Positions 6,347-64,000 are shown, counted from the stretch's first letter. The stretch: 64,000 nucleotides of DNA from an uncultured Gammaproteobacteria bacterium (GCA_964596525.1 CAZQUL010000001.1:12830-76829); one strand, 5' to 3'. The notes: a model not told the origin generated them from the sequence alone. Numbers and translations are program-made.

Positions 6347-6452
6347 GCTCTTTTCCACCTCGGCCCTTACGGGCTTTTTTTGATACGTATTTATAAAAAC
6401 CCTTCATACACAAAGCTGAAGGGTTTGACGTGAGGGGTTCGACAGGTCAATA

Positions 6453-6926
6453 CTACTTCTTCTCGCCAGCGAGCTGCTTTTCGATCTCTTCAAGGCGGAG
6501 GGATCGGAATCCCATCATCCAACCTTCGAACGCGCCGGAGAAGACGACCACGAAGGAATTGGGAGGCAAGTGTTTGACCGGTTCGATAAACGCTGCCTGA
6601 TGCCCAGCATGATGTAACTGCTCGACGAGCGTTTGGGCAGTAACGAGCGGGTCAGCAACCGGAACCGTCAGGGCCGTACTCGGAAGGTTCAGCCCGCCGC
6701 TTCGGTCCAATCGGTTAACAACAGTTCCGTCCTCAAAAACGATCTGGTGCGAAGGTCCCGAGGAAAAACGACGGATCTCCTTGAGGCCGGTTGCCACGAG
6801 CGTCTCCGCGATAATACTCTGAACCGAAGCGTCGGGAACACCGAAAACGCGATGGCCGTGAGGGATCGGCATGACAGACTCCTTTTGTGCCAGAGGTTGC
6901 ATCAGCGATTTTTTTGTACCAAACAC
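6453..6926 (-). CDS. hypothetical protein
   Basis: 157-aa ORF; no confident motif assignment. Confidence 0.45.
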   Translation of the reverse strand: MFGTKKSLMQPLAQKESVMPIPHGHRVFGVPDASVQSIIAETLVATGLKEIRRFSSGPSHQIVFEDGTVVNRLDRSGGLNLPSTALTVPVADPLVTAQTLVEQLHHAGHQAAFIEPVKHLPPNSFVVVFSGAFEGWMMGFRSLRLEEIEKQLAGEKK

Positions 6927-7033
6927 CGAGAAGTTCTGTCAAAAATTCTGCATGTCAGCATTTTCCGTAATCTCTTTTACCCTCCCCTAAGACAGTTATC
7001 TGTGTTAGGCTACCCCCATCTTTAACCTTCATT

Positions 7034-9238
7034 ATGCGCACGCCTTGTATAGCCAGCAGTTTCATTCTTACACTTATAGCCGCCATCGGTTTCGCATCTA
7101 GTGCCGAAGCTAAAACGATTCTCACCGATGTACCGCGCGCCAGCTGGGCCCGCTACGGCATCAACCCGTGGAAGCTCGATACGGACAACGACGGCATAAA
7201 AGACAGCGAGGAAATTGCCGCCAAACAGTGCCCGACGAACGCCGACCCCACCTCTCTCACCGACAAAAACTGCAAGCGCGGCACGTTTAACCTCAAAACT
7301 GAGACATACACGGCTCCAGCGGGCGCTAATTTCCTTAAGGCGCGCGAAATTAAAAAATTCCGCTCATGCACGGAACTCACCGCTGCGTTTAAAACCGCAC
7401 AGCTCGAAGGGCAGCGTGATTACTATATGCCAGAAGCGTTCGGCATAAGCCAAACCATCCTTACGTCTGCCGCCCGTGAAGCAGTAAACATTTCCGCTCC
7501 CGCAGCAGCCGGTCTCCCTGCAGCGCCACCGATTTTTTCTACTACCAACATCCAAGTGCAAGGCGTTGACGAAGGCGATATCGTGAAAACCGATGGTAAA
7601 ACCATTTACTACCTCAAAGGGGGCAGCGCCATCTACATTACCTCGGCCGACCCGAATAAAACCGAGCCGCTCGGCGTGATTCCCATCAGCACTATCATGC
7701 AGGCGCAAGAAATGTACCTCGCGGACAACAAACTGGTCGTCGTTGGACGCGCTCATTACGGTTTAGTGCAGAGCGAAACATACACCCTCAAAAACGCTCT
7801 GGGGCTTGTAGCGAGTTCGCCTGTTTTTATGGGGAGCAATCGCACCATCGCCGCTATCTTTGATGTAAGCAATCCAGAACGCACAAGCGTGCCGCGCGTC
7901 GTTGAGATCACGGGTAATCTGCGCACATCACGCCTCACCAACGGGTATTTATATCTGATCCTCAACCAGTCCATTCCCTACTACCTCTCCCCTTCAGCCG
8001 CCACCGACGCATTGCCGCAGATGCGCAACTTCAATAACATCGCTTCCATTACCACGGTTGCAGACAGTCAGTCAGCTCCCGGTTTCAAACCACTCGCTAA
8101 CTGCACGAACGTAGAATATCTCTACCCTAACCGCGGTACCGGCTACGTAGAAATTGTCGCCATTCCGGTAAATGATGCAAAAGCAGCGATCGGCAGCAAG
8201 GTCATCTGGGGCGTCGGTTCAGCCGATGAAATCTATGTTTCGCCAACGAACCTCTACATCGCCTCCCCCAATTATCAGTATCGCTTCTGGCGCGGTACGG
8301 TAGAGAGAAGTGAGCTTTATAAATTCTCGCTCAACAAAAACACCATCAAATTCGTCGCTGCCCAAACCGTACCAGGACATGTGCTCAACCAGTTCTCAAT
8401 GGACGAACAGAGCGGACTTTTACGCCTTGTCACCACTGAACGCGAACGCACGCGCACCGGTGATTTCGTCAATCATCTCTTCGTTTTGAACGATGATTTA
8501 AGCAACCTCGGCAGCGTTGATCGTTTTGCCCCGACGGAGCGCATCTATTCAGCCCGTTTCATGGGTGATCGTGCCTACGTTGTCACGTTCCGCACGGTGG
8601 ATCCCTTCATCGTATTCGACCTTAAAGATCCGCGTTCACCGCAATACATCGGCGAACTCAAGATTCCGGGCTTCTCCACGTACCTACACCCATACGATGC
8701 CACGCACATCATCGGCATTGGCCGCAACACCGGTGCCGATGAAAACGGCACGGTCTGGACCGAAGGCATCAAACTCGGCCTCTTCGACGTGACGAATCCG
8801 AATATTCCGACCCAGATGTTCTCCACCACCATCGGGGACCGCGGCACGGATTCTATCGCGCTCGACGACCACCATGCTTTCCTTTTCTCGCGCGAGAAAA
8901 ACCTCCTCGCTTTCCCGGTGCGCATCCACACGTTCACGGACGAACAAAAAAATTCCACCACTACCCGGCCATGGGAATACGGTTCGCAGACCTTCCAAGG
9001 ACTTCTTGCATACCGACTCGATCTTATGAACGGCTTTAGGGAAATCGGCCGCGTGACGCACCATTCCACGACCACGCCGGATGAAGTCTGCATCTATAGC
9101 GCAGCGCTCTTTGGCTGCGGCAGCGACGAGGTGCGTCGTTCCTTCTACATCAACGATAATCTCTATGTCTTCTCGGATAAGCAGATGACGGTGCATAGCC
9201 TGGGTAATCTGCTCAAACTATCTGAAGTGAAATATTAA
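7034..9238 (+). CDS. secreted beta-propeller domain protein (signal peptide)
   Basis: N-terminal signal peptide ending SSAEA. The VQGVDEGDIVKTDGKTIYYL segment is typical of the secreted Beta_propel domain family. It is followed by a terminator hairpin. Confidence 0.65.
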   Translation: MRTPCIASSFILTLIAAIGFASSAEAKTILTDVPRASWARYGINPWKLDTDNDGIKDSEEIAAKQCPTNADPTSLTDKNCKRGTFNLKTETYTAPAGANFLKAREIKKFRSCTELTAAFKTAQLEGQRDYYMPEAFGISQTILTSAAREAVNISAPAAAGLPAAPPIFSTTNIQVQGVDEGDIVKTDGKTIYYLKGGSAIYITSADPNKTEPLGVIPISTIMQAQEMYLADNKLVVVGRAHYGLVQSETYTLKNALGLVASSPVFMGSNRTIAAIFDVSNPERTSVPRVVEITGNLRTSRLTNGYLYLILNQSIPYYLSPSAATDALPQMRNFNNIASITTVADSQSAPGFKPLANCTNVEYLYPNRGTGYVEIVAIPVNDAKAAIGSKVIWGVGSADEIYVSPTNLYIASPNYQYRFWRGTVERSELYKFSLNKNTIKFVAAQTVPGHVLNQFSMDEQSGLLRLVTTERERTRTGDFVNHLFVLNDDLSNLGSVDRFAPTERIYSARFMGDRAYVVTFRTVDPFIVFDLKDPRSPQYIGELKIPGFSTYLHPYDATHIIGIGRNTGADENGTVWTEGIKLGLFDVTNPNIPTQMFSTTIGDRGTDSIALDDHHAFLFSREKNLLAFPVRIHTFTDEQKNSTTTRPWEYGSQTFQGLLAYRLDLMNGFREIGRVTHHSTTTPDEVCIYSAALFGCGSDEVRRSFYINDNLYVFSDKQMTVHSLGNLLKLSEVKY

Positions 9239-45259: not shown

Positions 45260-45589
45260 ACAAAAAACACCTAACCAGACGGTCGGTGAAAGCGGTTTTC
45301 CGGGTTGTATGACAAATCTTTACGGCCTTTGCGGACAGCCCAACATGCGCGCTAGCTAACAACCAAAGACGTTCGTACAAGCAAAACATCCCTTGCAGGA
45401 AGGGAAACAAGGGCTCTCGAAACGCGCATTGTAGATAAAGATGTCATAAATAGGGAGGTCGGCGGCAGCAGGCAAAAGCACACAGGCAGAGCAGGCATTC
45501 CACGGAAGACGGATCACTGATCGTATGGGATACGAATAAAGTGCCTATAAGGTAGCACGCGGTAAGGCGAAATGTCAATGTAGATATTA

Positions 45590-45616
45590 GAAAACCCGCT
45601 ACCAGAAGGAGCGGGT
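45590..45616 (-). terminator. terminator for 45655..46596
   Basis: Stem acccgct/agcgggt followed by a U-run on the minus strand. Confidence 0.5.
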
Positions 45617-45654
45617 ACTCTCAAGCGAGAGGAAAGAGCGAGGGAGCTGGCCGG

Positions 45655-46596
45655 TTATGGCTTGCAGGAGTTGGGGATGCCGGGCTCCGGGGTGGTGCAG
45701 GGCACGCTCTCGGTCTCACCGTCCGGACGCTGGTAAGCGCGGCGCAGCTGAGCGCCGGCGGGTGCGCGCACCGAGGTAAGCTCGTCGCCCGAGCGGCCGA
45801 CCAAGTGAATCACGGTATCATTTCCCGTCCGTTGCACGCACTGCCCGTCGGCGCTGCACAGGTCGATGTTCTGGCCATTGGCGTTCAAGACCAACACTCC
45901 TAACGGGAAGTTCGCATTGGCCGCGACGCCGAGCGATCCATACACACCGCCGTTCTGAATGGTGTAGGGCGCCTGGTAAAGGGCGGTTCCCACCATGTCG
46001 CGCGTACTCTTGTTGGGCACGCAGCCGTAGCTTCCGATGGTCTTGTCGCGCTCGAGCCGGTAGCAGGGGCCCGAGGGCAGCTTGTACGGGCAGCCGGGAC
46101 GCTTGGGATCGGGAACGATGCCGGGACCGCTGTTGGGCTCGGTGGGGCATTGATCCGTGGCATTGGACACGCCGTCGCCGTCGGTGTCGTTCGGGTCGTA
46201 TCCCGTGCCGCCGAGTCCGGCGACTACATCGTTGATAGGCTTTGCCACGAACTGCGGCCAGCCGGTCGGACCGCACCATGCCTGATCGACAGCACTCGCC
46301 TCGATGCGGTAAGCCTCAAGACTTCCCTTGCTCTGCTCGGTGACGAGGCAGACGGCTTGCGCTTTGGCATCGCCGTCGGGGCAGCAGGTCGCGGCTTGCG
46401 CACTATACTGATAGACCACATACCCGCCGCCTTGGCCACACATATCGATGGCCTCGTCGAGCTTCTGGCGCAGCGGAGTATCGCTCTGGCAGGTGAGGTC
46501 GGTGCGCGCCGAAAGACCGAGCCCACACCCGGAAAGCACCGTCGAAACAAGGGTGAGGATGAAGGTGGGAGGAATGAGAGAGCGAGAAGTGTGCAT
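45655..46596 (-). CDS. lipoprotein with thrombospondin type-3-like Ca-binding repeat (paralog A of 3)
   Basis: Lipobox LSGC; CCPDGDA motif; DTDGDGVSNATDQCP; RPGCPY; C-terminus ends SCKP. Confidence 0.65.
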   Translation of the reverse strand: MHTSRSLIPPTFILTLVSTVLSGCGLGLSARTDLTCQSDTPLRQKLDEAIDMCGQGGGYVVYQYSAQAATCCPDGDAKAQAVCLVTEQSKGSLEAYRIEASAVDQAWCGPTGWPQFVAKPINDVVAGLGGTGYDPNDTDGDGVSNATDQCPTEPNSGPGIVPDPKRPGCPYKLPSGPCYRLERDKTIGSYGCVPNKSTRDMVGTALYQAPYTIQNGGVYGSLGVAANANFPLGVLVLNANGQNIDLCSADGQCVQRTGNDTVIHLVGRSGDELTSVRAPAGAQLRRAYQRPDGETESVPCTTPEPGIPNSCKP

Positions 46597-46800
46597 GCTC
46601 AGACTCCTTGTTACGCAGCTACTTCATAAACAACAGCACTTATTCCGATATGATACCGGCAAGTACTGATAAAAAAATCCTATGACTTTTTTGCCTACTT
46701 GTCAACAGTATGACGGAATAAGCTGATAGGCCTGAAACAAAAAAGCCCGTTATTCAGCAGAGAAAACAGGCTTGTTTAAAAGTTGTGTGAAACCGCAGGG

Positions 46801-47742: not shown

Positions 47743-47940
47743 TATCTACCTCCGTAGTTTTACAGCATTGCAGCCGATACATTCGGGCAACACTGCCGTA
47801 GGGACGGTAGCGCGAAGAATCTTACCCGTCAAGAATAAGACGGAACGAATAAAAAACCTGCCTTCCCCGAAGGGTTGGCAGGCCAGAATCAAAGATCAAA
47901 TGGAAATTACAGAATCAAAGTGGAGGCAGAAGGCGGTTCA

Positions 47941-48867
47941 CTATGGCATGAGCACACAGGAGCCCGCCTCACCCATGTACTGGGCGGGGCAGGGGTCCGG
48001 GGTGACGATCGCCTTGGCGGCCACGTCCCAGTACGCCGGGCGCACGCTGAACGTGGCATTGCGCGTCCGAACCGTGGTGATGCCGCCCGGCGACACGACG
48101 TAGACCGTCTTGTTCGCCACGGGAACAGGGCGGCAGTTCCCACCCGCATCACAGACATCGACGTTGCCGGAGATCGTCCCCTGGCCGTCGACCGCGATGC
48201 CGACGAGGACCCGCGGACCGTTCGCCTTCACGTAGATGCCGCCACCCGGGGCGAGCGCACGCGAGTTCTGGTCGAAGCTCACAGGCATGGCGAACGTCGA
48301 AGGGCGCGAGACGCAGACCACGTCAGACACGACCGGATCGCTCTCGATCTTGTTGCAGGCTCCTCCGATGGGCTCCGCGTAGGGGCAGCCGGGGCGGGCC
48401 GGATCCTCGTACTGTCCGCGCGCCTCGTTGGGGCACTGGTCGTTCGCATCGGCGATGCCGTCGTTGTCGTTGTCCGGGTCGGGGCAGCCGTCGTCGTCCT
48501 TGAAGCCGTCCTTGTCCTCGGCCTCGTTCGGGCACTGGTCGCCCGTGTCCTGGAAGCCGTCCTTGTCCTTGTCGTTGTCGGGCGTGGCTTCGCAGTTGAT
48601 CGCCGCGAACTGGGACATGTCCTCGCCATCGAGGCAGGCCGCCTGGTCGCCGGTGTTGGGGCAGTACTTCTGCTTGTCGGCGAAGACCTCGGCTCCGCCG
48701 CGGCACAGGCCGTTGCCCTTCTGGGCACACTGATCGCTGCACCACTGCGGCGGGCCCTTGAGCCAGCTGCTAAACACTGAGTCGCAGCCGCTCACGAAGA
48801 ACGCTGCGATGCTCAGACACAGCACGCCAGCCGAGCGATAGACATTCTTGCCAATCTTCTTGCTCAT
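47941..48867 (-). CDS. lipoprotein, paralog C of TSP3-repeat family (three Asp-rich repeats)
   Basis: Start MSKKIG after GGAGGGA; lipobox VSGC. Repeats DKDKDGFQDTGDQCPNEAEDKDGFKDDDGCPDPDNDNDGIADANDQCP; RPGCPY present. Confidence 0.65.
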   Translation of the reverse strand: MSKKIGKNVYRSAGVLCLSIAAFFVSGCDSVFSSWLKGPPQWCSDQCAQKGNGLCRGGAEVFADKQKYCPNTGDQAACLDGEDMSQFAAINCEATPDNDKDKDGFQDTGDQCPNEAEDKDGFKDDDGCPDPDNDNDGIADANDQCPNEARGQYEDPARPGCPYAEPIGGACNKIESDPVVSDVVCVSRPSTFAMPVSFDQNSRALAPGGGIYVKANGPRVLVGIAVDGQGTISGNVDVCDAGGNCRPVPVANKTVYVVSPGGITTVRTRNATFSVRPAYWDVAAKAIVTPDPCPAQYMGEAGSCVLMP

Positions 48868-49139
48868 GACGATTCCCTCCCTATGCACTTCGATTTTCAA
48901 GGCTATCCCAATTTTGGAACCATTCCTCATTGGGACGATATAACGATGATTAGCATACCACAAAATCTGCCTATTGTCAAGACTATTTCGGGAACTATGT
49001 AGAGACGCTTTTTTCATTTAAATAAGCGAAAAAACCTTGTGTGCTTCTATTTGTTTAAGAATTGCCTACGAACTAGAATTAATATGACGGTAAGGAAGTC
49101 TGATGGTTGTGCAATTTTATCTCATATAAGCCAAACTTA

Positions 49140-49168
49140 TTGACACCGCGGCGCTTTTTACCTATACT
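49140..49168 (+). promoter_or_regulatory. promoter for infB (TTGACA-17-TATACT)
   Basis: ttgacaccgcggcgctttttacctatact, about 30 nt before the start codon. Confidence 0.55.
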
Positions 49169-49197
49169 TCCCCCATCACTCTTCTCTTCTACTCCGT

Positions 49198-51216: not shown

Positions 51217-51325
51217 AGAGGGAAACAGCACCGGTAGATAAGCACATGCCAAGCCACTGTTTACTTTTTACCGCCCACCGTTTACTCTTCAAGATACACC
51301 TTCACTCATTAACATTTTTATTCAT

Positions 51326-51649
51326 ATGGAAAAACACTTCACGGACGCCACGTTCCAAGCCGAAGTCCTTAACTCTTCCACGCCCGTCTTCGTTGATTTC
51401 TGGGCACCCTGGTGCGGACCATGCCAAATGATGGGTCCGATCGTCGAGGAATTGGCTGCGGAATACGCCGGCAAAAACATCGTTATCGGCAAATGCAACG
51501 TTGACGAAAACCCAAACAGCGCGTCCGAATACGGCGTGATGAGCATCCCCACCTTCATCGTATTCAAGGGTGGCAAGCCGGTCGACCAGGTCGTTGGCGG
51601 CACACAGAAAGAAACACTCCAGCAACTCATCGATAAACATCTTGCGTAA
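51326..51649 (+). CDS. trxA: thioredoxin
   Basis: [11 protein letters not shown] active site; 107 aa. Confidence 0.9.
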
Positions 51650-51666
51650 TTCTCTGAGGGCAGACC

Positions 51667-52656
51667 ATGTGTCTGTCCCTCGTTGTTTTTAACCGTATGA
51701 ATAAACGCATCATTATCGGCCTCGTTATCGTACTAGTTCTTGCTTCATCAGGCTATCTTCTTTCCGAGAAAATAAAAAACCATAGCTACTCTGAAGAGGT
51801 TTCTTACTCTTCAAGCGGAGGAAGCGGCGGATACGATGTCGCCGCCGATTCAATAGCGCTCACTGACACAGCGTATGCCAAAAACGGAGAGGGTATGGCG
51901 CAGCAACGTGCTATGAGCAACGCGGTACCAACCGGTATGCCGCTGCCGCCAAGCGTTCAACCGGGCGTCGCACCGGACGTACAAGAGCGCATGGTAGTGC
52001 GTAACGGTACTGTTTCTTTAGTCGTTAAAAATGTTTCCACTACGGCTGATGCCATTTACAGCCTGGTCGCGCGCTCGAACGGTTTTATCGGCAGCAGCAG
52101 TTTGTATAAAAACGGGACAGCACTCATCGGCACGCTCACACTGCGCATTCCCGTAAAAAACTTCGACGCAGTCGTTGCGGAAATAAAAACCATGGGCGAA
52201 CTCGTGAACGAGAATTTCCAGGGCGTTGACGTGACCGCCCAGTACGTCGATCTTGATTCTAATCTGCGCAACCTGCGCGCCACCGAAGAACAACTTCTTC
52301 TCATCATGAAGAAAGCCACGCGCATTTCGGACGTGCTTGAAGTACAAAACCAGCTCACCTACACGCGCGGGCAGATCCAGACCATACAAGGACAGATGAA
52401 TTATTTGAAGCAGACTTCTGATTACGCCTCGCTCACCGTTACCCTTACAACCGACCCAAGCACCTTGCCAGTGGTAGAAAAAGAAGGCGAAAAATGGCGC
52501 CCGCTTGCGACATTCAAAGCGGCGATCCGTACGCTTATCTCGTTTGCGCAAGCGCTGGTGGACATTCTCATCTGGTTCGTTATCTTCCTGCCGCTCGCCG
52601 CACTTGTCTTAGGTGGCATCTACTGGATGGTACGCAAAACGCTCATCAAACGATAA
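51667..52656 (+). CDS. DUF4349-like membrane protein (N-terminal TM, coiled coil, C-terminal TM)
   Basis: The architecture and the segment TLRIPVKNFDAVVAEIKTMGELVNE...LTVTL match DUF4349 family proteins. Confidence 0.55.
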   Translation: MCLSLVVFNRMNKRIIIGLVIVLVLASSGYLLSEKIKNHSYSEEVSYSSSGGSGGYDVAADSIALTDTAYAKNGEGMAQQRAMSNAVPTGMPLPPSVQPGVAPDVQERMVVRNGTVSLVVKNVSTTADAIYSLVARSNGFIGSSSLYKNGTALIGTLTLRIPVKNFDAVVAEIKTMGELVNENFQGVDVTAQYVDLDSNLRNLRATEEQLLLIMKKATRISDVLEVQNQLTYTRGQIQTIQGQMNYLKQTSDYASLTVTLTTDPSTLPVVEKEGEKWRPLATFKAAIRTLISFAQALVDILIWFVIFLPLAALVLGGIYWMVRKTLIKR

Positions 52657-52666
52657 TCATAAAACT

Positions 52667-52700
52667 AAAAACTACCTCGCATGGACGAGGTAGTTTTTAG
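52667..52700. terminator. bidirectional terminator
   Basis: Perfect 12-bp stem aaaactacctcg/cgaggtagtttt with loop catgga. Confidence 0.8.
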
Positions 52701-52704
52701 TTTG

Positions 52705-53538
52705 CTAGCGGGCCGCAAGAATAGGCGTAGAAGTAACTCCGGGGGTGACACCGACTACCGTCGGGGTAGCGAGTGGTTTGCGGGGCGTGGCGCCCTTCAC
52801 TTCTACCGTATCACCCACCTGGAGGAATGCATATAACGCTTCTACGTCCTTGTACGCCACGTTTACGCAACCATGACTCATCGGGCGGATGCCGAACTGA
52901 TTATGCCAGTACGCGCCATGGATATAGTAGCTGCGCTTGAATTCCAGATTCCATTTGGTGTTGGGCAAATTGTAGCCTGGGCCGATGTAGTGCACAACCG
53001 GAACTTTGCGTATGACGCTAAAGGTGCCAAGCGGCGTTGGGGTACTGAGCTTGCCGCTTGAAACCGGCATGTCCCCAACAAGGACATTGTTGAGATAGTA
53101 GCTAAGCCGTTGCGTAGTAAGGTCTACAATCACTTTGCGCGGCAGCGCTGTATCGCGCCCTGCTTCCAGGGGATTGCCGCCTTTTTTAACCTCTTCGCCA
53201 TCATTTTTACCGTCTTTATCGGTATCGGCTTTGCCCAGATCGGTACCAAGCTTGAGCTCTAAGGCATCGCTTAAACCGTCTTTATCAGTATCCACCTCGG
53301 AGAGGCGCTTGCCGGCGGCAAGCGGCGAGTAATCGGCAAAAACTTCTTCTGCATCCGAAAAACCGTCGCCGTCGGTATCGGTTTTTTTAGGATCAGTATG
53401 ATACACGGCTACTTCCTCATGGTCGAACAAATTATCACCATCAGCATCAAATGCTGACACCTGCGCCTGAACTGAGGGGGCGCAGAGCAGTGCAGTTGCA
53501 ACCGCACAACCGAGCACAATATTCTTCATCATATGCAT
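52705..53538 (-). CDS. L,D-transpeptidase (YkuD) with N-terminal TSP3/dockerin-like Ca-binding repeats
   Basis: Catalytic HGCVNV; repeats DTDGDGFSDAEE, DTDKDGLSDALE and DTDKDGKNDGEE; signal peptide. Confidence 0.75.
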   Translation of the reverse strand: MHMMKNIVLGCAVATALLCAPSVQAQVSAFDADGDNLFDHEEVAVYHTDPKKTDTDGDGFSDAEEVFADYSPLAAGKRLSEVDTDKDGLSDALELKLGTDLGKADTDKDGKNDGEEVKKGGNPLEAGRDTALPRKVIVDLTTQRLSYYLNNVLVGDMPVSSGKLSTPTPLGTFSVIRKVPVVHYIGPGYNLPNTKWNLEFKRSYYIHGAYWHNQFGIRPMSHGCVNVAYKDVEALYAFLQVGDTVEVKGATPRKPLATPTVVGVTPGVTSTPILAAR

Positions 53539-53591
53539 ACCTTCTACCTCTAGTCAGAGACTCATGAGGGTACTATGTAAGTAAGATTATA

Positions 53592-54497
53592 TTAATAGTG
53601 ATTGAAAATACCTTTTCCGTCAAACCGGAAACTACCAGCTTCGTCGGTGCGCCAAACAGGTATTCCGGCACGTTCCAAACGGCGCAGCACTCGGCGTGAG
53701 GGGTGGCCGAACCGATTCTGTTCGCCCGCAGAAATTATGGCTTCGCGTGGCGCAACAGCGGCAATAAAATCTTCGCTGCTTGACGTATCGCTGCCATGGT
53801 GGCCGACCTTAAGGATCGGCGCACTAAGCTTCGGGCAGGAGAACTGTTTGACAGTTGAGGTAACGGACGTTGCAGGATCAGTATTACAGTACGTGGTGAG
53901 CAAAAACTGCTCAAGCGGCGCTTCCGCATCACCCGTAAAGAGCACGAGCGGTTTGCGCTCCGGGTCCACCAAACGAAAGACGATCGATGAGTTATTACTG
54001 TCTGCCGACTCACCGCTAAAACGTGGGTGCGGCGAAAGAATTTCGAACGCATACCCATCTATCTCCCAGACGTCCGGCGCCGTTACTGCGGCAAGCGGGA
54101 TTGCCCGTTCCTCAAAAGAACGCAATAGCTCTTTCCAAGCCGCATCATCCTTATCGTGACCATTGATGATGACGGCATGTACGGCGTAGCGCTCGACGAT
54201 TCCTTGGCACCCGGCATAGTGGTCGCTATCGGGATGTGTGATAACCAAAAAATCGATAGAACGGTCGTACCAGGGCAAAAGGCGCCCCACCTCGGCAAGC
54301 ACACGGCGGTCAGGGCCGCAATCGATGAGGATACGTTTACCGGAAGGAAGCGTTATAAAAGTTGCATCGCCTTGCCCTACATCAAGAAAATCGACGTAAA
54401 AACCTTGTTTTGAATGGGCGATGAACGCACCGATACTCAGGATAGTCATGACAACCACAGCGACGATAACGCACTGGCGAAAAAACGACACACGCAC
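53592..54497 (-). CDS. ComEC C-terminal-type metallo-beta-lactamase domain protein (stand-alone, TM-anchored)
   Basis: VGQGDATFITLPSGKRILIDCGPD and HPDSDHY, as in the ComEC/Rec2 MBL domain. Confidence 0.7.
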   Translation of the reverse strand: MRVSFFRQCVIVAVVVMTILSIGAFIAHSKQGFYVDFLDVGQGDATFITLPSGKRILIDCGPDRRVLAEVGRLLPWYDRSIDFLVITHPDSDHYAGCQGIVERYAVHAVIINGHDKDDAAWKELLRSFEERAIPLAAVTAPDVWEIDGYAFEILSPHPRFSGESADSNNSSIVFRLVDPERKPLVLFTGDAEAPLEQFLLTTYCNTDPATSVTSTVKQFSCPKLSAPILKVGHHGSDTSSSEDFIAAVAPREAIISAGEQNRFGHPSRRVLRRLERAGIPVWRTDEAGSFRFDGKGIFNHY

Positions 54498-55114
54498 TAT
54501 TTATTAATCTGTGCCGCGAAAAGTTCGGCGATCCACTGTCCGTTTTCGGTGATGCGCTCGCGACGCAAGATGGTAAAAAGGCTTTCTTCGAGCGCTTCAG
54601 CCACTGCTTCGGGACGGTGATAGTACGACTCGATCTTAACAATTCCTTGGGCTGTCTTGATTTCTGGCGGATCTTTCTGGTTGATAGCTGAAACGATAAA
54701 ACGGCCGTTAGGCACAAGTACGCGCCGCACTTCATCAAAGAAGTAATCGAGCCGTTTGAGGTGCACGATAAGGAAAAGCGCGGTCACCACATCGAATGAA
54801 GCATCGGGAAAGGGTATGTTTTCGGCTTCTCCCACGACAGTTGTAAGCCGCGCACTCCGCCCTTGTGCCACTTTGAGCATGGCCGGCGAATGATCAAGCA
54901 CAACTACTTCTCGGGCAGTAGCCGCAAACTTAACCGCTGTGCGGCCGGTACCACCACCCACATCAAGCAAACGCTGACCCGAAATGTCGCCGGTAAGCGC
55001 CCCAAGCATGCCCTGCTCAAAAGAATCCAGATACGCCTCATAGCGCCGGTACAGGGGCGCCACCGCTTCGTATCCAGCCTGTGAGGGCAGAAATTGTATT
55101 CGTTTTGAGGACAT
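54497..55114 (-). CDS. class I SAM-dependent methyltransferase
   Basis: LLDVGGGTGRTAVKFA motif I. The stop/start overlaps the downstream gene. Confidence 0.8.
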   Translation of the reverse strand: MSSKRIQFLPSQAGYEAVAPLYRRYEAYLDSFEQGMLGALTGDISGQRLLDVGGGTGRTAVKFAATAREVVVLDHSPAMLKVAQGRSARLTTVVGEAENIPFPDASFDVVTALFLIVHLKRLDYFFDEVRRVLVPNGRFIVSAINQKDPPEIKTAQGIVKIESYYHRPEAVAEALEESLFTILRRERITENGQWIAELFAAQINK

Positions 55115-55131
55115 AGCAAACTATATCGGGG

Positions 55132-56676
55132 TTATCGCACAGTTCGCTTATGCATGTCAATCCTTAAACGTGTATAACCAATACCGAAGATAAGCGCAGC
55201 ATACGCGGCAAACATGCCGAAGCGGCCCATCGCTACCGACACCACAGCAAACGGCACACGAGCCAACAAGCGCAGAAGATAAAAAATGATCCGCACTAAA
55301 CCGCCGGCTACAACACCCACTACGCTTCCCAACCCCTCATGCACCAAACCAACAAGAGTGGCAATAAAAGCAAAGAACATGATGAACGACGTGAGGGGCA
55401 CAACCAAGGTATTAGCTACAAGAGCAACAAGCGACACGCGGCCGAAATAGTACATAATGAACGGCAAGGTGCTGATGGTTGCAGATAACGTGGTAAGGCC
55501 AGCCTCGGCAAGAGCCGCCACAACACCCGTGAACCTCTTCCTCGGCACCCACCGCTCGAGGAGCGGCTGCACATACAGCAAACCGAGCGTTGCCGCCACT
55601 GAGAGATGAAAACCGATATCAAAAAGCAAGCTATACGGACTGAAGGTGATAAGAACGGCCACGGCATACATTATAAGGAGAGCTGGATTAAGCCGTCGGC
55701 TCATCTGGCGCGCCATAAGGGTGATAACCACCATGATACCAGCCCGCACCACCGAAGCCGAGGCACCGGCGAAAAGGACAAACACAATAATCGCCGCCAC
55801 GGTGATAAACCAGGTTTTACGCTCCGAAAGACCGCCCCATATAAACGCCTGCGCCACCGCGACAATGATAATGTTGAGATTCGCACCCGAAACTGCGATG
55901 AGGTGCGTTACCCCGGTTGCTGCAAATAAATCTGTTAAAGCCGGTGGCAAACCGGATCGGCTGCCATAGAGAATGCCCGCGATAAAACTCGACTCCGGTT
56001 CTTTCCATACTGCATCGATAGCGCGAGCCACCCGGGAACGCACTGCAAAAAGTATACGCCAAAACACCGACGACTCTCCTTTCCCCACAACTCCAATAGC
56101 TGAAGCCGTGCATTCGCCTACAAAACCGTTGATCCAGGCGTAGCGATCATACCGGAAAGCTTCATCGACAGCTGCCTCGGGGATACGCGGCGTACACGCA
56201 AACCGCACCAGGTCTCCGTAACGAGGCCCACTCTCACGCGGCGCACGAACGCGCAGCGCGACGGATTGTAGTTTTTCGGGACGTTCTATTTGCACGAGGT
56301 AGTACGTTCGGTCTAACCGGCGATCTGGATCATGCACGACCACCCCTTCAATATTAATCCGTTTACCTACCGCGGACGCGATACGTTCTACCGCCACAGC
56401 CGGCGTCGCGGTTTCTACGCGCCAGATGGCAAGAGTAGCTGCCAAACCAGCGGCTATCAACAAACGCAACTGCGGCCTACTCCACCACAAGCTTACCGCA
56501 CATAACAACCCGATCACCGCAAAAGGTATCAAAAAACTTATCGCGGCAACCACAGTTGGCGCTACGGTGCTCCACCCGATCGCAACGATATAGGTAACAA
56601 AAAAGACAACAACCACACCGTGCGCGCTATACCAGGGAAACCGCCGCCATCGCGAGAAGATATTCATATGAGACAA
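55132..56676 (-). CDS. comEC: ComEC/Rec2 N-terminal part (DUF4131 plus competence membrane domain), lacking the MBL domain
   Basis: THLIAVSGANLNII (compare HLLAISGLH), ASVVRAGIMV and FHLSVAATLGL competence-domain motifs; many TM helices. Confidence 0.75.
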   Translation of the reverse strand: MSHMNIFSRWRRFPWYSAHGVVVVFFVTYIVAIGWSTVAPTVVAAISFLIPFAVIGLLCAVSLWWSRPQLRLLIAAGLAATLAIWRVETATPAVAVERIASAVGKRINIEGVVVHDPDRRLDRTYYLVQIERPEKLQSVALRVRAPRESGPRYGDLVRFACTPRIPEAAVDEAFRYDRYAWINGFVGECTASAIGVVGKGESSVFWRILFAVRSRVARAIDAVWKEPESSFIAGILYGSRSGLPPALTDLFAATGVTHLIAVSGANLNIIIVAVAQAFIWGGLSERKTWFITVAAIIVFVLFAGASASVVRAGIMVVITLMARQMSRRLNPALLIMYAVAVLITFSPYSLLFDIGFHLSVAATLGLLYVQPLLERWVPRKRFTGVVAALAEAGLTTLSATISTLPFIMYYFGRVSLVALVANTLVVPLTSFIMFFAFIATLVGLVHEGLGSVVGVVAGGLVRIIFYLLRLLARVPFAVVSVAMGRFGMFAAYAALIFGIGYTRLRIDMHKRTVR

Positions 56677-56721
56677 AACACTCTGGGGTATCCCAGAGTG
56701 TTGTACGTAATGAGTGTATCT

Positions 56722-57168
56722 TTACAAAAAGAGGGCTACGAAACTGTTCGTCGGCCGACCAATGGCGATATTGATCGCCATGCTGGTCAACGAATACGAG
56801 GAGAGAATAATGACGAGACCAATCGTAGCGTTGCGGATGGTATGTTTGGCTTTATCGATCTGTTCGTCGTTGCCACCGGCCGTGAGCCAGAGATAACCGG
56901 CGTACAACATGTAGCAAAAGACGATAATAGCCAAGAGCCGCAGAATGGAGCGCACCAAAAGCATGATGGTTACCCGTGGATCCACCGGATCACCAAAACC
57001 AGCACCGCGTTTGCCGCCAGCAGCAGCAAGCTGCGCGCCAATGTCTTCACCTACGCCGGTATCTTGCGCTTGTACAGGCAGAGCCGGAAGAGCGATTGGA
57101 AGCGCAACCAAAACTGCCATACCAAGGAAGGCGAGGGTGCGTTGAACGCGGCGAGCAAACGTAGCCAT
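56722..57168 (-). CDS. VirB2/TrbC-like pilin-family protein (array member 1)
   Basis: Signal peptide, then YAGYLWLTAGGNDEQIDKAKHTIRNATIGLVIILSSYSL. Confidence 0.65.
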   Translation of the reverse strand: MATFARRVQRTLAFLGMAVLVALPIALPALPVQAQDTGVGEDIGAQLAAAGGKRGAGFGDPVDPRVTIMLLVRSILRLLAIIVFCYMLYAGYLWLTAGGNDEQIDKAKHTIRNATIGLVIILSSYSLTSMAINIAIGRPTNSFVALFL

Positions 57169-57199
57169 ACAAAATGAAGAAAGGTAAAAGAAACGAGAT

Positions 57200-57685
57200 C
57201 TAGAAAACGTAATTCCACCAGTTATCTTTGAAGGATTTGCCAAAACTAGTCCAAAAACCGCCTGTACCGTAGCCCGGGCCAACGGAACCACTTGAGGGCG
57301 CACCCGACGTAAGCGCAACGACACCTACCAAGAAGGCCGACAAACCATAGGCCGCCATTACCACGACAAGACCCATAGTAGAGGTCTTAATGATATCTTT
57401 TGCCTTATCGACCTGACCTTCATCACCCTGCGCCGTGAGCCACAAGAAACCGGCGTATACGAGCAGGATGAAAAAAATAGTACCGATAAGCGACATGGCG
57501 ATGCGGATGATGCGGCCGATGGTTTCGGACAAGGTCGTATCCGTCACTTGTTTAACATCGTAACCGCTTTTTCCAGCCACTTCTTCGGTTAAACTCATAA
57601 TGTCCGGCTGAGCCAGAGAAACGACCGGCAAAGCGAAGGCGGTCGTAGCTACAACACCGAGAATAAGGCGCGATACTTTTGTCAT
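57200..57685 (-). CDS. VirB2/TrbC-like pilin-family protein (2)
   Basis: YAGFLWLTAQGDEGQVDKAKDIIKTSTMGLVVVMAAYGLS. Confidence 0.7.
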   Translation of the reverse strand: MTKVSRLILGVVATTAFALPVVSLAQPDIMSLTEEVAGKSGYDVKQVTDTTLSETIGRIIRIAMSLIGTIFFILLVYAGFLWLTAQGDEGQVDKAKDIIKTSTMGLVVVMAAYGLSAFLVGVVALTSGAPSSGSVGPGYGTGGFWTSFGKSFKDNWWNYVF

Positions 57686-57693
57686 ACCAGAAA

Positions 57694-58104
57694 TTATTTA
57701 GCGGCCGTTGAAGAGGCCGGAGCAGCCGCTCGGGTCAAGCGATTGCCGACGAAGTAGGTTACCGAGTAGGCCGACAGTGTAATGATAAGACCCATGACGC
57801 ATGCCTTTATGATTGACTGCGCTTTTTCGATTTTTCCTTCATCGCCCTGAGCTGTCATCCAGAGAATGCCGGCGTAAATGGTGAGCAGGAAGAAGATGGT
57901 ACCGGTAATCGCCAGCACACCGCGCACCACGGTACCTATCGTACCGGTCAAATCACGGCTCAAGCCCGTACCGCTTTTATCACCCACAGCTTTATCGAGA
58001 TTACTCATTGCCTTGTCGAGCTGGGCGTGGGTAAAAGAAACCGGAGCTAAAGCCATAATACCGGCTACGAGCGAAACAGTGAGAAACGAGAAGAAACGGC
58101 GCAT
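57694..58104 (-). CDS. VirB2/TrbC-like pilin-family protein (3)
   Basis: YAGILWMTAQGDEGKIEKAQSIIKACVMGLIITLSAYSV. Confidence 0.7.
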   Translation of the reverse strand: MRRFFSFLTVSLVAGIMALAPVSFTHAQLDKAMSNLDKAVGDKSGTGLSRDLTGTIGTVVRGVLAITGTIFFLLTIYAGILWMTAQGDEGKIEKAQSIIKACVMGLIITLSAYSVTYFVGNRLTRAAAPASSTAAK

Positions 58105-58158
58105 AAAAAGTTATATAATTAACACTAATGAAGAGGAGTAAAAGCAGGCTAAGAGATA

Positions 58159-58713
58159 TTAATTTCCCACATCAACGCAACGAGCATTGTCAGTTCCTTC
58201 GTTTATCCACGCACATATCGAAGCATTCGCATTGGTGTTTTCGGCAAGACAGGAATCACGCGTAACGTTGATGACACACGAGACATTATTTCCAGCCGCA
58301 CTTGAGGCAGCAGCGTTACGGGATAACTGATCGAAGACGAACTGAGTAATAGCGTACGCAGCCAAAACGATCACCAAACCGATAACCGAAGCTTCCATGA
58401 TACTTTTCGCTTTGCTGATACTGTCTTCGCTGCCGCGAGCCGTCATCCAGAGAATGCCGGCGTAAAAGATGAGTCCAAAGAAAACGATACCCAAAAAGCC
58501 CAACACCGCACCAACCAACGTACCGACCAGCTCGGGAACGGTGCCTGCGCCGGCTATTTTAGAAGGTAAAAGATTCGCGTTGCCGCGATTAACTTCTTGG
58601 ACCGTAAGAGACAGGCCGTAATCTTTTTTCTGTTGCGCATGAGCGCCAGAAAACGGCAGGACAAGTGAGGCAAGCCCTACCACAAGGCTGCCGATGACAA
58701 GCATTTTTTTCAT
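58159..58713 (-). CDS. VirB2/TrbC-like pilin-family protein (4) with Cys-containing C-terminal tail
   Basis: YAGILWMTARGSEDSISKAKSIMEASVIGLVIVLAAYAI. Start placed at the MKKML ATG; the track uses an upstream TTG. Confidence 0.7.
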   Translation of the reverse strand: MKKMLVIGSLVVGLASLVLPFSGAHAQQKKDYGLSLTVQEVNRGNANLLPSKIAGAGTVPELVGTLVGAVLGFLGIVFFGLIFYAGILWMTARGSEDSISKAKSIMEASVIGLVIVLAAYAITQFVFDQLSRNAAASSAAGNNVSCVINVTRDSCLAENTNANASICAWINEGTDNARCVDVGN

Positions 58714-58847
58714 ACCGTACAAGGTCCTAAATGAAGAAGGTAATGCCCCGAAAAGTTGGGTCTTTGCGAAGCACTCTCTTCTTCAAACCCCTCAGTCCGA
58801 GGGAGTGGCGGCCGCACACCCCCTCGAACATAAGAGAGATTCTCGTT

Positions 58848-59264
58848 TTAGAGTCCTGAGCCCGTAGTACCGGTACCTGTCGTTGCCGCTACGAGCTGGT
58901 TGATGATGAAGCTGGTAAGGGCGTAAGCCATGAGGATGATAGCCAAACCGATAGCCGATCCGGTGATCCAAGCTTTAGCCTGAGCAGTCTGGTCTTCGTT
59001 GCCTCCGGCGGTCATCCAAAGGAAACCGGCGTAGAGCATGATAACTACCATGACGGTAGCGATAAGACCAAGAAGGGCTTTGATAATGTTGGAAACCACG
59101 ATGCGGAAATCACGGTCCGGGAGCCCCGTAGCCTTGATCTGCGAGACACCGAAGGTGTCAGCAGTTACCGATTGAGCGGAAGCCGTCGAGACAAACGTCC
59201 CAGCGGAAGCTACGAGCGTCAAACCCATTACGAAAGCGGTCATGAGTTTTTTGGTTGTGGACAT
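58848..59264 (-). CDS. VirB2/TrbC-like pilin-family protein (5)
   Basis: YAGFLWMTAGGNEDQTAQAKAWITGSAIGLAIILMAYAL. Confidence 0.7.
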   Translation of the reverse strand: MSTTKKLMTAFVMGLTLVASAGTFVSTASAQSVTADTFGVSQIKATGLPDRDFRIVVSNIIKALLGLIATVMVVIMLYAGFLWMTAGGNEDQTAQAKAWITGSAIGLAIILMAYALTSFIINQLVAATTGTGTTGSGL

Positions 59265-59441
59265 ACTGTCACCTCCCTTCGTGATAAAGCTAGGTATGGC
59301 ATGCCGTCATCCGACACACCGCTGACACAATCTTTTGAGCTTGTGCCAATGGTGTTTCTGATGATCTAAACGGCCTATGCTAGCATGATTTAGTAATTTT
59401 GTCAAGTATCCTGAGAAGCGTCCTCATTGTAGCATGTTTTT

Positions 59442-59882
59442 TTACTTCGCGCCAGTCAGATAATCCAGATAGGTGCCAAGCAGGATGTAGCTCGCTAAAA
59501 TAACGAGCACGCCAATGACGGCCCACATCATGGTCTTGCTCCCCTGCGCAATCTGGTCGCTATTTCCAGCTGCAGTAAGCCACATGAAACCGCCCCATAC
59601 CACCATCATGAGCGTTAAGGAACCCATGATAAGAAGCACGAACTGAATAAAACCACCGACTTGGGCAAAGATGTTAGTGCCGCGCGACTGGAGCGGATTG
59701 GGAATTGTGGTGCATGTGCCAACACCATCAGGGCACGGTGCGCTATTGGTGGCGTTGAAACCAGGCGTATTGGCATTCGGAAGCGACGTGGTCTGTGCCA
59801 GAACGGCGGAGCCGGATAATGCACCAACAAAAACGAGCGCGGTAATGAAGAGGCGGGGTGCGCGATGCACAAAAGATAGCAT
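59442..59882 (-). CDS. VirB2/TrbC-like pilin-family protein (6)
   Basis: WGGFMWLTAAGNSDQIAQGSKTMMWAVIGVLVILASY. Start placed at the internal Met MLSFVHR to avoid overlap. Confidence 0.65.
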   Translation of the reverse strand: MLSFVHRAPRLFITALVFVGALSGSAVLAQTTSLPNANTPGFNATNSAPCPDGVGTCTTIPNPLQSRGTNIFAQVGGFIQFVLLIMGSLTLMMVVWGGFMWLTAAGNSDQIAQGSKTMMWAVIGVLVILASYILLGTYLDYLTGAK

Positions 59883-59892
59883 AAAGTAAGAA

Positions 59893-60855
59893 TTATCCAA
59901 CGGTATCAAAGATGAACTTAACGATAAGCGAACTGCCAAGCATAGCCACTACGCCAAGCGTTGTCCATACGATGATCGTTTTCGCTTTATCGATGCGATC
60001 GCCATTGCCTGCAGCTGTCATCCACAAGATACCGGCCCAGACATAGAGCGCAAGAGCAAAAGAACCGATGAAGGCCAAAAAGACATTGATGATCTGAGCA
60101 ATAACTTCGGTGATCGTGCGGAATTTGGTTTGATTAAGTACGCTTGCTTCTTGCGTTAAGTTGATATTCCCCTGCAAAGCATCTTGCTGGGTTTGATCTT
60201 CGGCGTCGCGGAGATTCTCTTCTTGGTTGACACGCGCTTGGAAGGCCTGGCACCCAGCACCGCGGGCGATAACGTCTTTATATTTGGGATATGTCGTGCC
60301 AGTGAACGGACGGTAATCTTGGCCAAAAGAAGCGCAGGAAGGCGTAAATTTAAGGGCATCGCCCTCTTGATCATAGTCGACAGCTCTGCTGCAATCTGAT
60401 AAACGCCCACCTTGATTTCGGCAGCAGCAGAACGGGTCGAGATAGTTGCATTTTTTGGCAAAATCTTCTCCATCTCGGCTGCCACCATACCACTGCACCT
60501 CACCTACTTTTATGTCGCAACCATTTTCATTAGACGAATAGAGGAGTGGATATCGATTATACGGTTTGTCATCGACGGACTTACGCAAAACTTCAAAGAG
60601 AGGCAGGTCGTCAAAAGTATTAAAACTCATCCATTTATAACTTCGTTTGGCACCACCATCAATTTTAAAGTCAATTTCACAATAGCATGCACCGACGCAG
60701 GTTGACGGATCCCGACATTCATCGTCGTATACCTCTCTAACTCCTGACAGGTCATTAACGATGTAGGCAGCCTGAATAGATTGTGGTTTGAAAAAACCGC
60801 CGATCAAGAAAAATAGGCCCACGATGACAATCAACCTGACAAGACGTTGTACCAT
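59893..60855 (-). CDS. VirB2/TrbC-like pilin-family protein (7) with large Cys-rich N-terminal ectodomain
   Basis: WAGILWMTAAGNGDRIDKAKTIIVWTTLGVVAMLGSS at the C-terminus; 20+ Cys in the N-terminal domain. Confidence 0.65.
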   Translation of the reverse strand: MVQRLVRLIVIVGLFFLIGGFFKPQSIQAAYIVNDLSGVREVYDDECRDPSTCVGACYCEIDFKIDGGAKRSYKWMSFNTFDDLPLFEVLRKSVDDKPYNRYPLLYSSNENGCDIKVGEVQWYGGSRDGEDFAKKCNYLDPFCCCRNQGGRLSDCSRAVDYDQEGDALKFTPSCASFGQDYRPFTGTTYPKYKDVIARGAGCQAFQARVNQEENLRDAEDQTQQDALQGNINLTQEASVLNQTKFRTITEVIAQIINVFLAFIGSFALALYVWAGILWMTAAGNGDRIDKAKTIIVWTTLGVVAMLGSSLIVKFIFDTVG

Positions 60856-60859
60856 ATAA

Positions 60860-61582
60860 TTATTGCAAACGGAATTGTTGGCTGAGACCCAGAGCATCGG
60901 CCAAGATGGTAATGAGAAGATACGCACCGAAGACAACCGCGAGACCGATGACCGCGGCCACCATGGTATTCTTACCCGATTCGATCATGTCAGAACTGCC
61001 GCGCGAAAGAATGAACTTGAAGCCGCCGATGAGGAAAGCGACAAGGGCGATGCCACCGACAAGGCCGAGCAGCAAATTGGCCAGATCGATAGCCAGTTTG
61101 ATGAAAATACGCACGTCTTTGCACTCGCCACGGACCGTGCTTTCGAATACGCAGGCAGGCATGATGCGCTGCAAAATACCGGTTTGACCATTACTTTGCG
61201 CTTCAACGTTCGTCTGGTTTTTCTTGCTCACGAGGAGCCGGGCAGCATCTTGCAAGGTGGCGGTTTTAAAGTTACGGACTTTTACCGAACACGCTTCAGC
61301 GTTAGGCTGAAATTCACAGGTGGTGTATTTGCTGTTAATAGCCGGATTGCCCGGAGCACACGAAGTGGCATCGGCTTCAAAACATTCCGCGTCAAAACGA
61401 TTGGCATCATCGAATATGCTCACGTCGGTTTCTTGGACTACAGCATCTTCGGGAAACTTAAAGACATAGCAATAACAGGAACCGGCTGCCTGCGCGCCCT
61501 GAGCATTCCCTAACAGCCCTGCCAACAAGGCGAAGGCAAGAAGAGAACTAGAAACTAAACGGCGAAGAAGAAACATAGGCAT
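60860..61582 (-). CDS. divergent pilin-family-like protein (8) with Cys-rich N-terminal domain
   Basis: Same architecture: signal peptide, then C-terminal double TM GGIALVAFLIGGFKFILSRGSSDMIESGKNTMVAAVIGLAVVFGAY. The loop motif is degenerate. Confidence 0.5.
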   Translation of the reverse strand: MPMFLLRRLVSSSLLAFALLAGLLGNAQGAQAAGSCYCYVFKFPEDAVVQETDVSIFDDANRFDAECFEADATSCAPGNPAINSKYTTCEFQPNAEACSVKVRNFKTATLQDAARLLVSKKNQTNVEAQSNGQTGILQRIMPACVFESTVRGECKDVRIFIKLAIDLANLLLGLVGGIALVAFLIGGFKFILSRGSSDMIESGKNTMVAAVIGLAVVFGAYLLITILADALGLSQQFRLQ

Positions 61583-62988: not shown

Positions 62989-63022
62989 AGCGTTAATACG
63001 GAAGATAAAAACAGTGGGCTTA

Positions 63023-63889: not shown

Positions 63890-64000
63890 AGTGAAGGCAG
63901 TAAAAGATAGCTCAAGTTTAACAAACAAACGAACGACGAGCAATAAACGAACAAAGTTCGGGATATCTTGACATAGTTTTGGAGCCGTGCCAAGGTGATT

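Follow-up and report, generated by a model that had tools for sequence, protein, structure and literature searches.

A stretch of 64,000 nucleotides (nt), called the window below, from an uncultured bacterium labelled as a gammaproteobacterium (GCA_964596525.1 CAZQUL010000001.1:12830-76829) encodes the DNA-uptake protein ComEC in two pieces. Three co-oriented open reading frames (ORFs) on the minus strand, at 53592-56676, code for the channel half of ComEC, a class I S-adenosylmethionine (SAM)-dependent methyltransferase and a ComEC-type metallo-beta-lactamase (MBL) nuclease. We regard it as likely that they represent a two-subunit ComEC of the kind standard in the Candidate Phyla Radiation (CPR), with the methyltransferase as a long-standing operon passenger between its genes; the methyltransferase most probably does not act in DNA uptake. 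The separation of the two halves is the normal state in Patescibacteria/CPR and is not peculiar to the genome of the window, whose taxonomy is taken here from homologues only.

The gene of the channel subunit (55132..56676, minus strand) codes for 514 amino acids (aa) when read from TTG at 56676; an ATG at 56667 is the likelier start and gives 511 aa. A spacer of 17 nt (55115..55131, minus strand) lies between its TAA stop and the ATG of the methyltransferase gene (54497..55114, minus strand), whose product of 205 aa is soluble, predicted to be cytoplasmic and matched by Methyltransf_11. The gene of the nuclease subunit (53592..54497, minus strand; 301 aa from GTG) begins within the end of the methyltransferase gene, the stop codon TAG of the one and the start codon GTG of the other overlapping by one base in TAGTG (54497..54497, minus strand). 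Its product is predicted to consist of a signal-anchor transmembrane (TM) helix in N-in orientation and an extracytoplasmic MBL domain. Because the ORFs are long and their profile matches strong, all three lie far beyond chance. An original prediction made from the sequence of the window had named these ORFs and the overlap, together with the motifs HLIAVSGANL, SVVRAG and FHLSVAATLGL in the channel ORF and GQGDATFI, DCGPD and HPDSDHY in the MBL ORF, and all of them were found at these positions. Base composition is even across the block, without a break. Consensus scans detected no promoter-like and no convincing terminator-like site inside it, and a scan of window positions 44000-64000 gave no Rfam match.

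The 514-aa ORF, previously assigned to the competence channel by its motifs, matches the Competence model (PF03772) with E=3.8e-48 and 164.6 bits (cut-off 23); the domain covers residues 236-499 (55180..55971, minus strand) and profile positions 2-264 of 270. A DUF4131/OB-fold region (PF13567) precedes it at residues 48-179 (56140..56535, minus strand; E=4.6e-11, 43.1 bits, cut-off 31.6), and TIGR00360 (ComEC_N-term) is matched with 71.5 bits against a cut-off of 36.5. The layout of the protein is that of two N-terminal TM helices, an extracytoplasmic OB fold, the polytopic Competence domain and a basic tail. According to hydropathy, TM2 and TM3 are separated by a loop of 195 residues, which places the OB fold between helices, and the same analysis delimits the K/R-rich tail FGIGYTRLRIDMHKRTVR. 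The ORF is collinear with residues 68-486 of a solved full-length ComEC of 801 aa (30bt_A, E=4.3e-25).

The MBL ORF is recognized by Lactamase_B in Pfam (E=3.1e-15), and its best profile match is the ComEC/Rec2 model TIGR00361, aligned over positions 420-663 of 663 (E=3.8e-44, 150.9 bits). Its significant sequence matches in the PDB are ComEC entries, one of them labelled 'Competence protein', and residues 8-295 align to residues 510-787 of 30bt_A, anchor helix included. This helix (residues 9-27, CVIVAVVVMTILSIGAFIA; 54417..54473, minus strand; hydropathy 2.82) comes after R2 and R7 and corresponds, by alignment, to the final TM helix of fused ComECs. The metal-binding motif H88-P-D90-S-D92-H93 of the MBL domain (54219..54236, minus strand) is conserved in 21 homologues, in which D44, H88, D92, H93, D190, H233, H234 and H265 are invariant and D90 is nearly so; the residues of the H-x-D-x-D-H, GHHGS and GHP motifs are invariant or nearly invariant, and four cysteines are invariant as well. 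Membership in a defence system with MBL or methyltransferase components (Lamassu LmuA, DRT RTasMBL, AVAST Avs1a, MADS mad2) was considered and rejected, as PADLOC returned only partial matches to generic domain segments (for example profile positions 4-79 of 345 for LmuA and 288-403 of 492 for mad2). The neighbours in the window are ComEC, YkuD and pilin genes, and defence partner genes are not among them.

That the two ORFs are the two halves of ComEC, as had been proposed, follows from their Pfam and TIGR domain matches and from their collinearity with the solved protein. In an alignment with a fused relative of 810 aa (L024), the break falls inside the short basic loop QKQSPQCRQDIWRSLTRRLTTK between the last channel helix and the anchor helix. 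Together the halves have 514 + 301 aa, and fused relatives about 800-817 aa. Neither half reaches the equivalog cut-off of TIGR00361, 190 bits (channel 81.8, MBL 150.9), and only the pair of proteins has the architecture of the ComEC family. All domains are kept and, judged by sequence, the split would cost ComEC nothing. Hydropathy and the positive-inside rule predict that both the channel tail and the N-terminus of the MBL ORF are cytoplasmic; the MBL domain would therefore be located outside the membrane.

Single-chain ComEC/Rec2 (Bacillus subtilis ComEC, 30bt) has the same three domains in the same order, and its channel motifs, MBL ligands and anchor helix are all present here. Unlike it, the ComEC of the window consists of two polypeptides, the break lying in the cytoplasmic loop ahead of the anchor helix, and has a third gene between its halves. 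Studied ComECs import DNA, and their nuclease degrades the strand that is not transported (PMC8579336, PMC12455585, PMC13539106). Cryo-electron microscopy has shown the MBL domain on a flexible linker, positioned by contact with the OB fold (PMC13539106), which makes a non-covalent two-piece ComEC plausible. By analogy with these proteins, subunit 1 (about 511 aa) would provide an extracytoplasmic OB fold, the membrane channel and a basic cytoplasmic tail, and in subunit 2 (301 aa) the N-in anchor helix would put an MBL nuclease, catalytically intact by sequence, outside the membrane. The two subunits would assemble non-covalently; the nuclease subunit would degrade one DNA strand outside, and the other strand would go through the channel.

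The distribution of this architecture was followed in two collections of loci. A genome scan, in which one genome per species was used and six-frame ORFs were searched with profiles of all three proteins, gave 80 loci; a metagenome scan with the methyltransferase as seed gave 80 further loci. Among 83 related loci, nearly every one from Patescibacteria/CPR has channel and MBL as separate ORFs, and separate halves are also present in many evidently mislabelled loci that cluster with CPR. The 120 best homologues of the MBL ORF are all stand-alone proteins of 265-353 aa, those with a taxon name belonging to Patescibacteria or Magasanikbacteria. Single-chain ComEC of about 800 aa was found in 10 loci, all labelled Chloroflexota or Bacillota. 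Over all loci examined, the junction of the two genes is occupied by a methyltransferase in 57 cases and by another insert in 18, and the genes are directly adjacent, many of them overlapping, in 25; two loci were scored as fusions of channel and methyltransferase, and in 27, many of them on truncated contigs, the channel gene was not found. One split and directly adjacent ComEC is located in a genome labelled Chloroflexota (L082, Dehalococcoidia bacterium UBA6803, 6436..8864); ComEC fission may not be exclusive to CPR, or this bin may be mislabelled. Eight loci (L017, L021, L023, L034, L037, L051, L058, L060) have a stand-alone ComEC-type MBL with no Competence gene within the 7-8 kb upstream, and in some CPR genomes the halves therefore seem to be unlinked, or the channel gene is elsewhere. 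Several metagenome-assembled genomes (MAGs) titled Gammaproteobacteria or Saccharibacteria (L006, L008, L009, L018, L022, L073 and many 'uncultured Candidatus Saccharibacteria') have ComEC loci that cluster with Magasanikbacteria or Parcubacteria, so that automated taxon labels look unreliable.

The view of ComEC as normally one polypeptide, from which the original prediction started, does not hold for this phylum: separate halves are the rule across CPR, where fusion of ComEC and MBL is essentially absent, as Méheust et al. 2019 (PMC6744442) had already noted. The fission would be old, being present across many CPR lineages. In the part of Pimentel & Zhang 2018 (PMC6299819) that bears on ComEC domain profiles, DUF4131 plus Competence is a common profile and Lactamase_B is treated as gained or lost. 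The channel subunit of the window is exactly such a 'DC-profile' ComEC, the type described in this account and, for CPR, by Méheust et al. 2019. In what these papers say of the two groups the MBL domain is absent or lost, whereas here and in most CPR loci examined it is a separate membrane-anchored protein, usually encoded alongside. A limited literature search, which is no proof of absence, found no explicit account of a split ComEC whose MBL half is kept as a neighbouring gene.

The distribution of the methyltransferase is far narrower than that of the split. In the genome scan an ortholog (hidden Markov model (HMM) score >300) lies between the ComEC halves only in the nearest relatives of the window (L001, L002, L004-L007, L010); the order is channel-methyltransferase-MBL in L001 and channel-methyltransferase-DedA-MBL in L002. 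In the Magasanikbacteria loci L008, L009 and L011-L013 the halves abut and the junction is free of methyltransferase. In the metagenome scan, nearly all loci with enough flank have the channel gene upstream and the MBL gene downstream of the methyltransferase. A neighbour-joining tree of MBL domains places all methyltransferase-bearing loci in one clade, Magasanikbacteria. The MBL proteins of the methyltransferase-free L008 and L009 are 61-62% identical to that of the methyltransferase-bearing L155, a closer relationship than that of the window's MBL domain to those of other methyltransferase-bearing loci (37-49%). The simplest history suggested by these sequences is one insertion of the methyltransferase at the base of the clade, followed by losses from the junction. 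A pre-existing CPR gene for a methyltransferase of about 200 aa would have landed in the junction in the ancestor of one Magasanikbacteria clade, after the fission. It would mostly have stayed there, presumably co-transcribed with its neighbours and often overlapping them, but some descendants would no longer have it in the junction, and on two occasions it would have become joined in frame to the channel gene. The suggestion of a lineage-specific rearrangement holds in essence for the methyltransferase.

The same junction holds other genes in other CPR lineages: an antisense Fe/Mn superoxide dismutase, DedA/VTT, GIY-YIG, a surface protein of 784 aa, and IMPDH together with an SDR dehydrogenase. 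The ComEC junction is a recurrent insertion site. The superoxide dismutase gene (about 196 aa, opposite strand) is found between the ComEC genes in L041, L042, L043, L053, L062, L063, L069, L071 and L072, its identity having been checked by Pfam for three of these nine loci; it is a second, independent recurrent occupant of the junction, in another CPR group. Another feature of the junction is a long interval of 300-1050 nt between channel and methyltransferase in eight loci (L004 6867..7362, L006 4151..4556, L010 7062..7369, L090, L101, L111, L115, L140). These spacers are mutually non-homologous, except for short matches between L006 and L111; that of L101 holds a GIY-YIG ORF, and no tRNA or Rfam match was found in the long spacers of the relatives. 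Orthologues of the methyltransferase also occur without a nearby ComEC half, in L121, L129, L148, L149, L151, L153, L156 and L157 (HMM scores 306-320), where flanks of 0.5-5 kb per side were available, 3-5 kb on both sides in five loci. Five of the eight loci were examined for their neighbours, which are unrelated genes and vary from locus to locus; in L151 and L153, opposite-strand neighbours resembled cell-wall or division genes by eye only. Synteny within the clade extends beyond the block, to a class I aminoacyl-tRNA synthetase (probably leucyl-tRNA synthetase, LeuRS) upstream and to YkuD, NusA and YidC downstream. Because this wider neighbourhood is also conserved, the conserved position of the methyltransferase is, taken alone, weak evidence of a functional link.

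The methyltransferase gene is complete, as had been claimed: its product of 205 aa matches Methyltransf_11 (PF08241) with E=1.9e-22 and 80.2 bits against a cut-off of 21.2, other models of class I SAM-dependent methyltransferases also match, and the SAM-binding motif I reads LDVGGGTGR (residues 50-58; 54941..54967, minus strand), with LDVGAGTGR in orthologues. An AlphaFold2 (AF2) model (predicted local distance difference test, pLDDT, 91.4) has alternating strands and helices in a Rossmann-like arrangement. NCBIfam equivalogs stay well under their cut-offs (TIGR01934, UbiE/MenG, 68.5 vs 158; BioC 58.4 vs 185; PmtA NF045882 30.1 vs 390). A profile search of the PDB is led by phosphoethanolamine N-methyltransferases and uncharacterised Methyltransf_11 proteins, and the Foldseek neighbours SpnF, YcgJ, TM1389, MitM, PmtA, TleD, UbiG and NTMT1 are small-molecule, lipid or protein methyltransferases of 15-23% identity. 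No DNA-methyltransferase family was present among Pfam matches (E<=0.01), the 25 best NCBIfam matches, the best 60 of 212 PDB matches or the top 50 Foldseek matches, and no RNA-methyltransferase family among Pfam or NCBIfam matches; identity as a DNA or RNA methyltransferase, having neither family nor fold support, was rejected. Of the types between which the original prediction had left the choice, DNA or RNA and small-molecule ones, the nearest are thus small-molecule, lipid or protein methyltransferases and not DNA ones. The coupled DNA-modification module that it had suggested finds no support in the Methyltransf_11 and UbiE/BioC/phosphoethanolamine-type matches, which include no DNA-methyltransferase family, or in the occurrence of orthologues in unrelated contexts. 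The protein appears to be a cytoplasmic SAM-dependent enzyme that resembles the small-molecule, lipid or protein type.

Generic Methyltransf_11 enzymes (TM1389 2avn, YcgJ 1xxl, PH0226 1ve3, phosphoethanolamine/phosphatidylethanolamine N-methyltransferases, UbiG) have the same Rossmann-type fold, motif I and size, with E-values down to 1.8e-25 in profile-to-PDB comparison and Foldseek TM-scores of 0.6-0.76. Unlike them, the family of the window protein is only 15-23% identical to these enzymes, lies below every NCBIfam equivalog cut-off and has motifs of its own (GY..A..Y..E.YL.SFE, NINQKDPP, IESYYHRPE). The orthologues, proteins of about 200 aa, are closely related to one another (69% mean column identity) and share 44-54% identity with the window protein. 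The family is also narrow: a profile search of 1.84 billion representatives retrieved 51 at E<=1e-30, and no fusion of channel and methyltransferase stood out among its top matches. The public gene call for the methyltransferase (P0121) has 188 aa and a later start; as orthologue alignments conserve S11, G14 and Y15 of the additional N-terminal part, the 205-aa form is favoured.

Several other explanations of the split and of the nuclease ORF can be weighed against these data. The methyltransferase lies exactly at the domain boundary, as would be expected if its insertion had itself broken a single-chain ComEC gene. Such an origin is very improbable, given that methyltransferase-free split halves exist throughout CPR, also outside the methyltransferase clade and often with overlapping stop and start codons, and that the methyltransferase-bearing clade is nested within split-ComEC lineages in the MBL tree. 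The ComEC gene is therefore not 'split by' the methyltransferase, as the original prediction had it: the split predates the insertion and has a much wider distribution, and in most other CPR lineages, as in some members of the methyltransferase clade itself, the two halves are immediate neighbours. It could also be that the 301-aa MBL protein is no ComEC subunit but a membrane-anchored hydrolase in its own right, such as a nuclease for defence or nutrient scavenging, whose gene merely lies next to that of a Competence-only ComEC. This would fit the eight loci without a Competence gene upstream of the MBL gene, the weak partial matches to the defence-system MBL models LmuA, RTasMBL and Avs1a, and the occurrence of ComECs with only DUF4131 and Competence in transformable bacteria (PMC6299819). 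We nevertheless judge it improbable to a high degree: among profiles, the ComEC/Rec2 equivalog matches best, through its C-terminal part (150.9 bits), the significant PDB matches are ComEC entries with the anchor helix within the match, summed length and order equal those of fused ComEC, the MBL gene most often stands next to the channel gene and on its strand, and the defence matches span only generic MBL segments. An assembly artefact or a decaying pseudogene has a negligible probability. The gene order, which the original prediction had left to be confirmed, is common to related genomes and recurs in dozens of assemblies that were made independently in different studies; each of the three ORFs has its full length, the catalytic motifs are conserved, and a break in composition within the region is absent. 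Neither of the outcomes that the original prediction had named as refuting it was obtained, as the 514-aa ORF also matches the Competence model. Nothing in favour of misassembly or decay was found, and both were ruled out.

The ORFs, their domains, their collinearity with ComEC, the phyletic pattern and the gene order were observed directly; subunit assembly, topology, co-transcription and the lack of a functional link of the methyltransferase to uptake we infer. The MBL tree is a simple neighbour-joining tree without support values, and taxon labels are unreliable for many MAGs in the collection. The arrangement of the genes weighs against a passenger. Their order is kept across about 60 loci whose proteins are only 40-50% identical; with start codons assigned heuristically, the methyltransferase start overlaps the end of the channel gene in 30 of 58 loci, and its stop overlaps the MBL start or lies at most 20 nt from it in 31 of 58. 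Three database proteins moreover join channel and methyltransferase in one frame, through two independent events, and a separate MBL gene follows each of them (L135 3483..5612, 709 aa; L150 3510..5612, 700 aa; L164 5001..7088, 695 aa). Two of these, P0241 (709 aa) and P0242 (700 aa), were found in separate metagenomes and share 88% identity. The third, P0243 (695 aa), shares only 48% identity with P0241, its channel and methyltransferase are joined at another point, and the MBL protein encoded next to it is 80% identical to that of an unfused locus, which argues for an independent fusion. The fused protein is modelled confidently (pLDDT 89.7; predicted TM-score, pTM, 0.74), with a stretch of only about 5 residues linking the last TM helix to the enzyme, which lies on the cytoplasmic side; as AF2 gave this model without inter-domain error estimates, it cannot show docking. 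Retained order, overlaps and fusions are compatible with binding of the methyltransferase to the channel on its cytoplasmic side, without proving it.

These observations would be explained if the methyltransferase were a true accessory of ComEC at the cytoplasmic mouth of the channel. It might there methylate, for example, a lipid of the membrane, a protein, either the channel itself or another one involved in competence, or a nucleotide or nucleic acid that has been taken up, and lying between the two ComEC genes would ensure that it is expressed together with them. Besides the position conserved in 57 loci, the frequent stop/start overlaps on both sides and the two independent in-frame fusions with their very short linker, this agrees with an insertion point in a cytoplasmic loop, which would put a tethered SAM enzyme on the proper side of the membrane, and with the peripheral-membrane lipid methyltransferases (PmtA 8ys9, UbiG) among the structural neighbours. 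Such a role is still unlikely in our estimation. Orthologues occur with no ComEC gene nearby, close relatives keep both ComEC genes with no methyltransferase between them, unrelated genes hold the same junction elsewhere, the whole neighbourhood is syntenic in the clade and a DNA-methyltransferase signature was not found. The fusions, too, may be near-neutral, since the methyltransferase's own Met is in frame and a small indel in overlapping genes could produce them. In a more definite form, in which the methyltransferase of one Magasanikbacteria clade is a dedicated cytoplasmic partner docked at the channel tail, or in two lineages tethered to it, and methylates lipid, a protein of the competence machinery, or nucleic acid or nucleotides as they enter, the proposal is slightly more doubtful still. 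A long-standing passenger between the genes of a two-subunit ComEC is the likely state of affairs. A gene of this kind has a parallel in the comE operon of Bacillus subtilis, where comEB, a dCMP deaminase gene, is situated between comEA and comEC; to our knowledge, comEB has no established catalytic role in DNA uptake. In both cases a gene for a metabolic enzyme is embedded among DNA-uptake genes. The two cases differ in the enzyme family, and comEB separates two different proteins, not the halves of one ancestral protein.

Around the three-gene block, an L,D-transpeptidase (YkuD) with bacterial thrombospondin type 3 (TSP3) calcium-binding repeats is encoded directly after the MBL gene and does not belong to ComEC (52705..53538, minus strand; YkuD 1.1e-24 and TSP3_bac 3.7e-14 in Pfam); L001 and L164 have the same neighbour. 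Upstream of the channel gene and on the same strand, seven tandem paralogues (56722..61582, minus strand) all match T4SS_pilin (PF18895) with 27.3-38.0 bits (cut-off 26.6) and have YAG.LWMTA.G in common. An eighth, larger protein (347 aa) gives a below-threshold match of 18.3 bits. A conjugation-type pilin array thus adjoins DNA-uptake genes. Farther away, a G+C-rich island at 47900..48800 (0.67-0.69, about 0.5 around it) corresponds to a minus-strand ORF of 358 aa with a faint match to thrombospondin type 3 repeats, and no Rfam match was found there; an ORF of 313 aa at 45655..46596 resembles it.

The split ComEC is ordinary CPR architecture, partly known from the literature. What seems to be spelled out here for the first time is that the nuclease half is kept as a separate anchored subunit across CPR and that one clade has a conserved three-gene block with occasional fusions of channel and methyltransferase. 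Surveys of ComEC domains that consider single proteins count the nuclease domain of CPR as 'lost', whereas in the window and its relatives the domain persists as a subunit of its own, anchored in the membrane and mostly encoded by an adjacent gene; estimates of the completeness of the uptake machine should therefore include neighbouring genes. A natural two-piece ComEC is also a ready-made system for studying how nuclease and channel cooperate without a covalent link. The methyltransferase calls for caution: a gene can sit between the two halves of a machine, and now and then even be fused to one half, without being part of the machine. Should the methyltransferase be part of ComEC after all, it would be a new competence accessory, and as a dedicated partner of the channel it would make up a three-component uptake machine not seen elsewhere.

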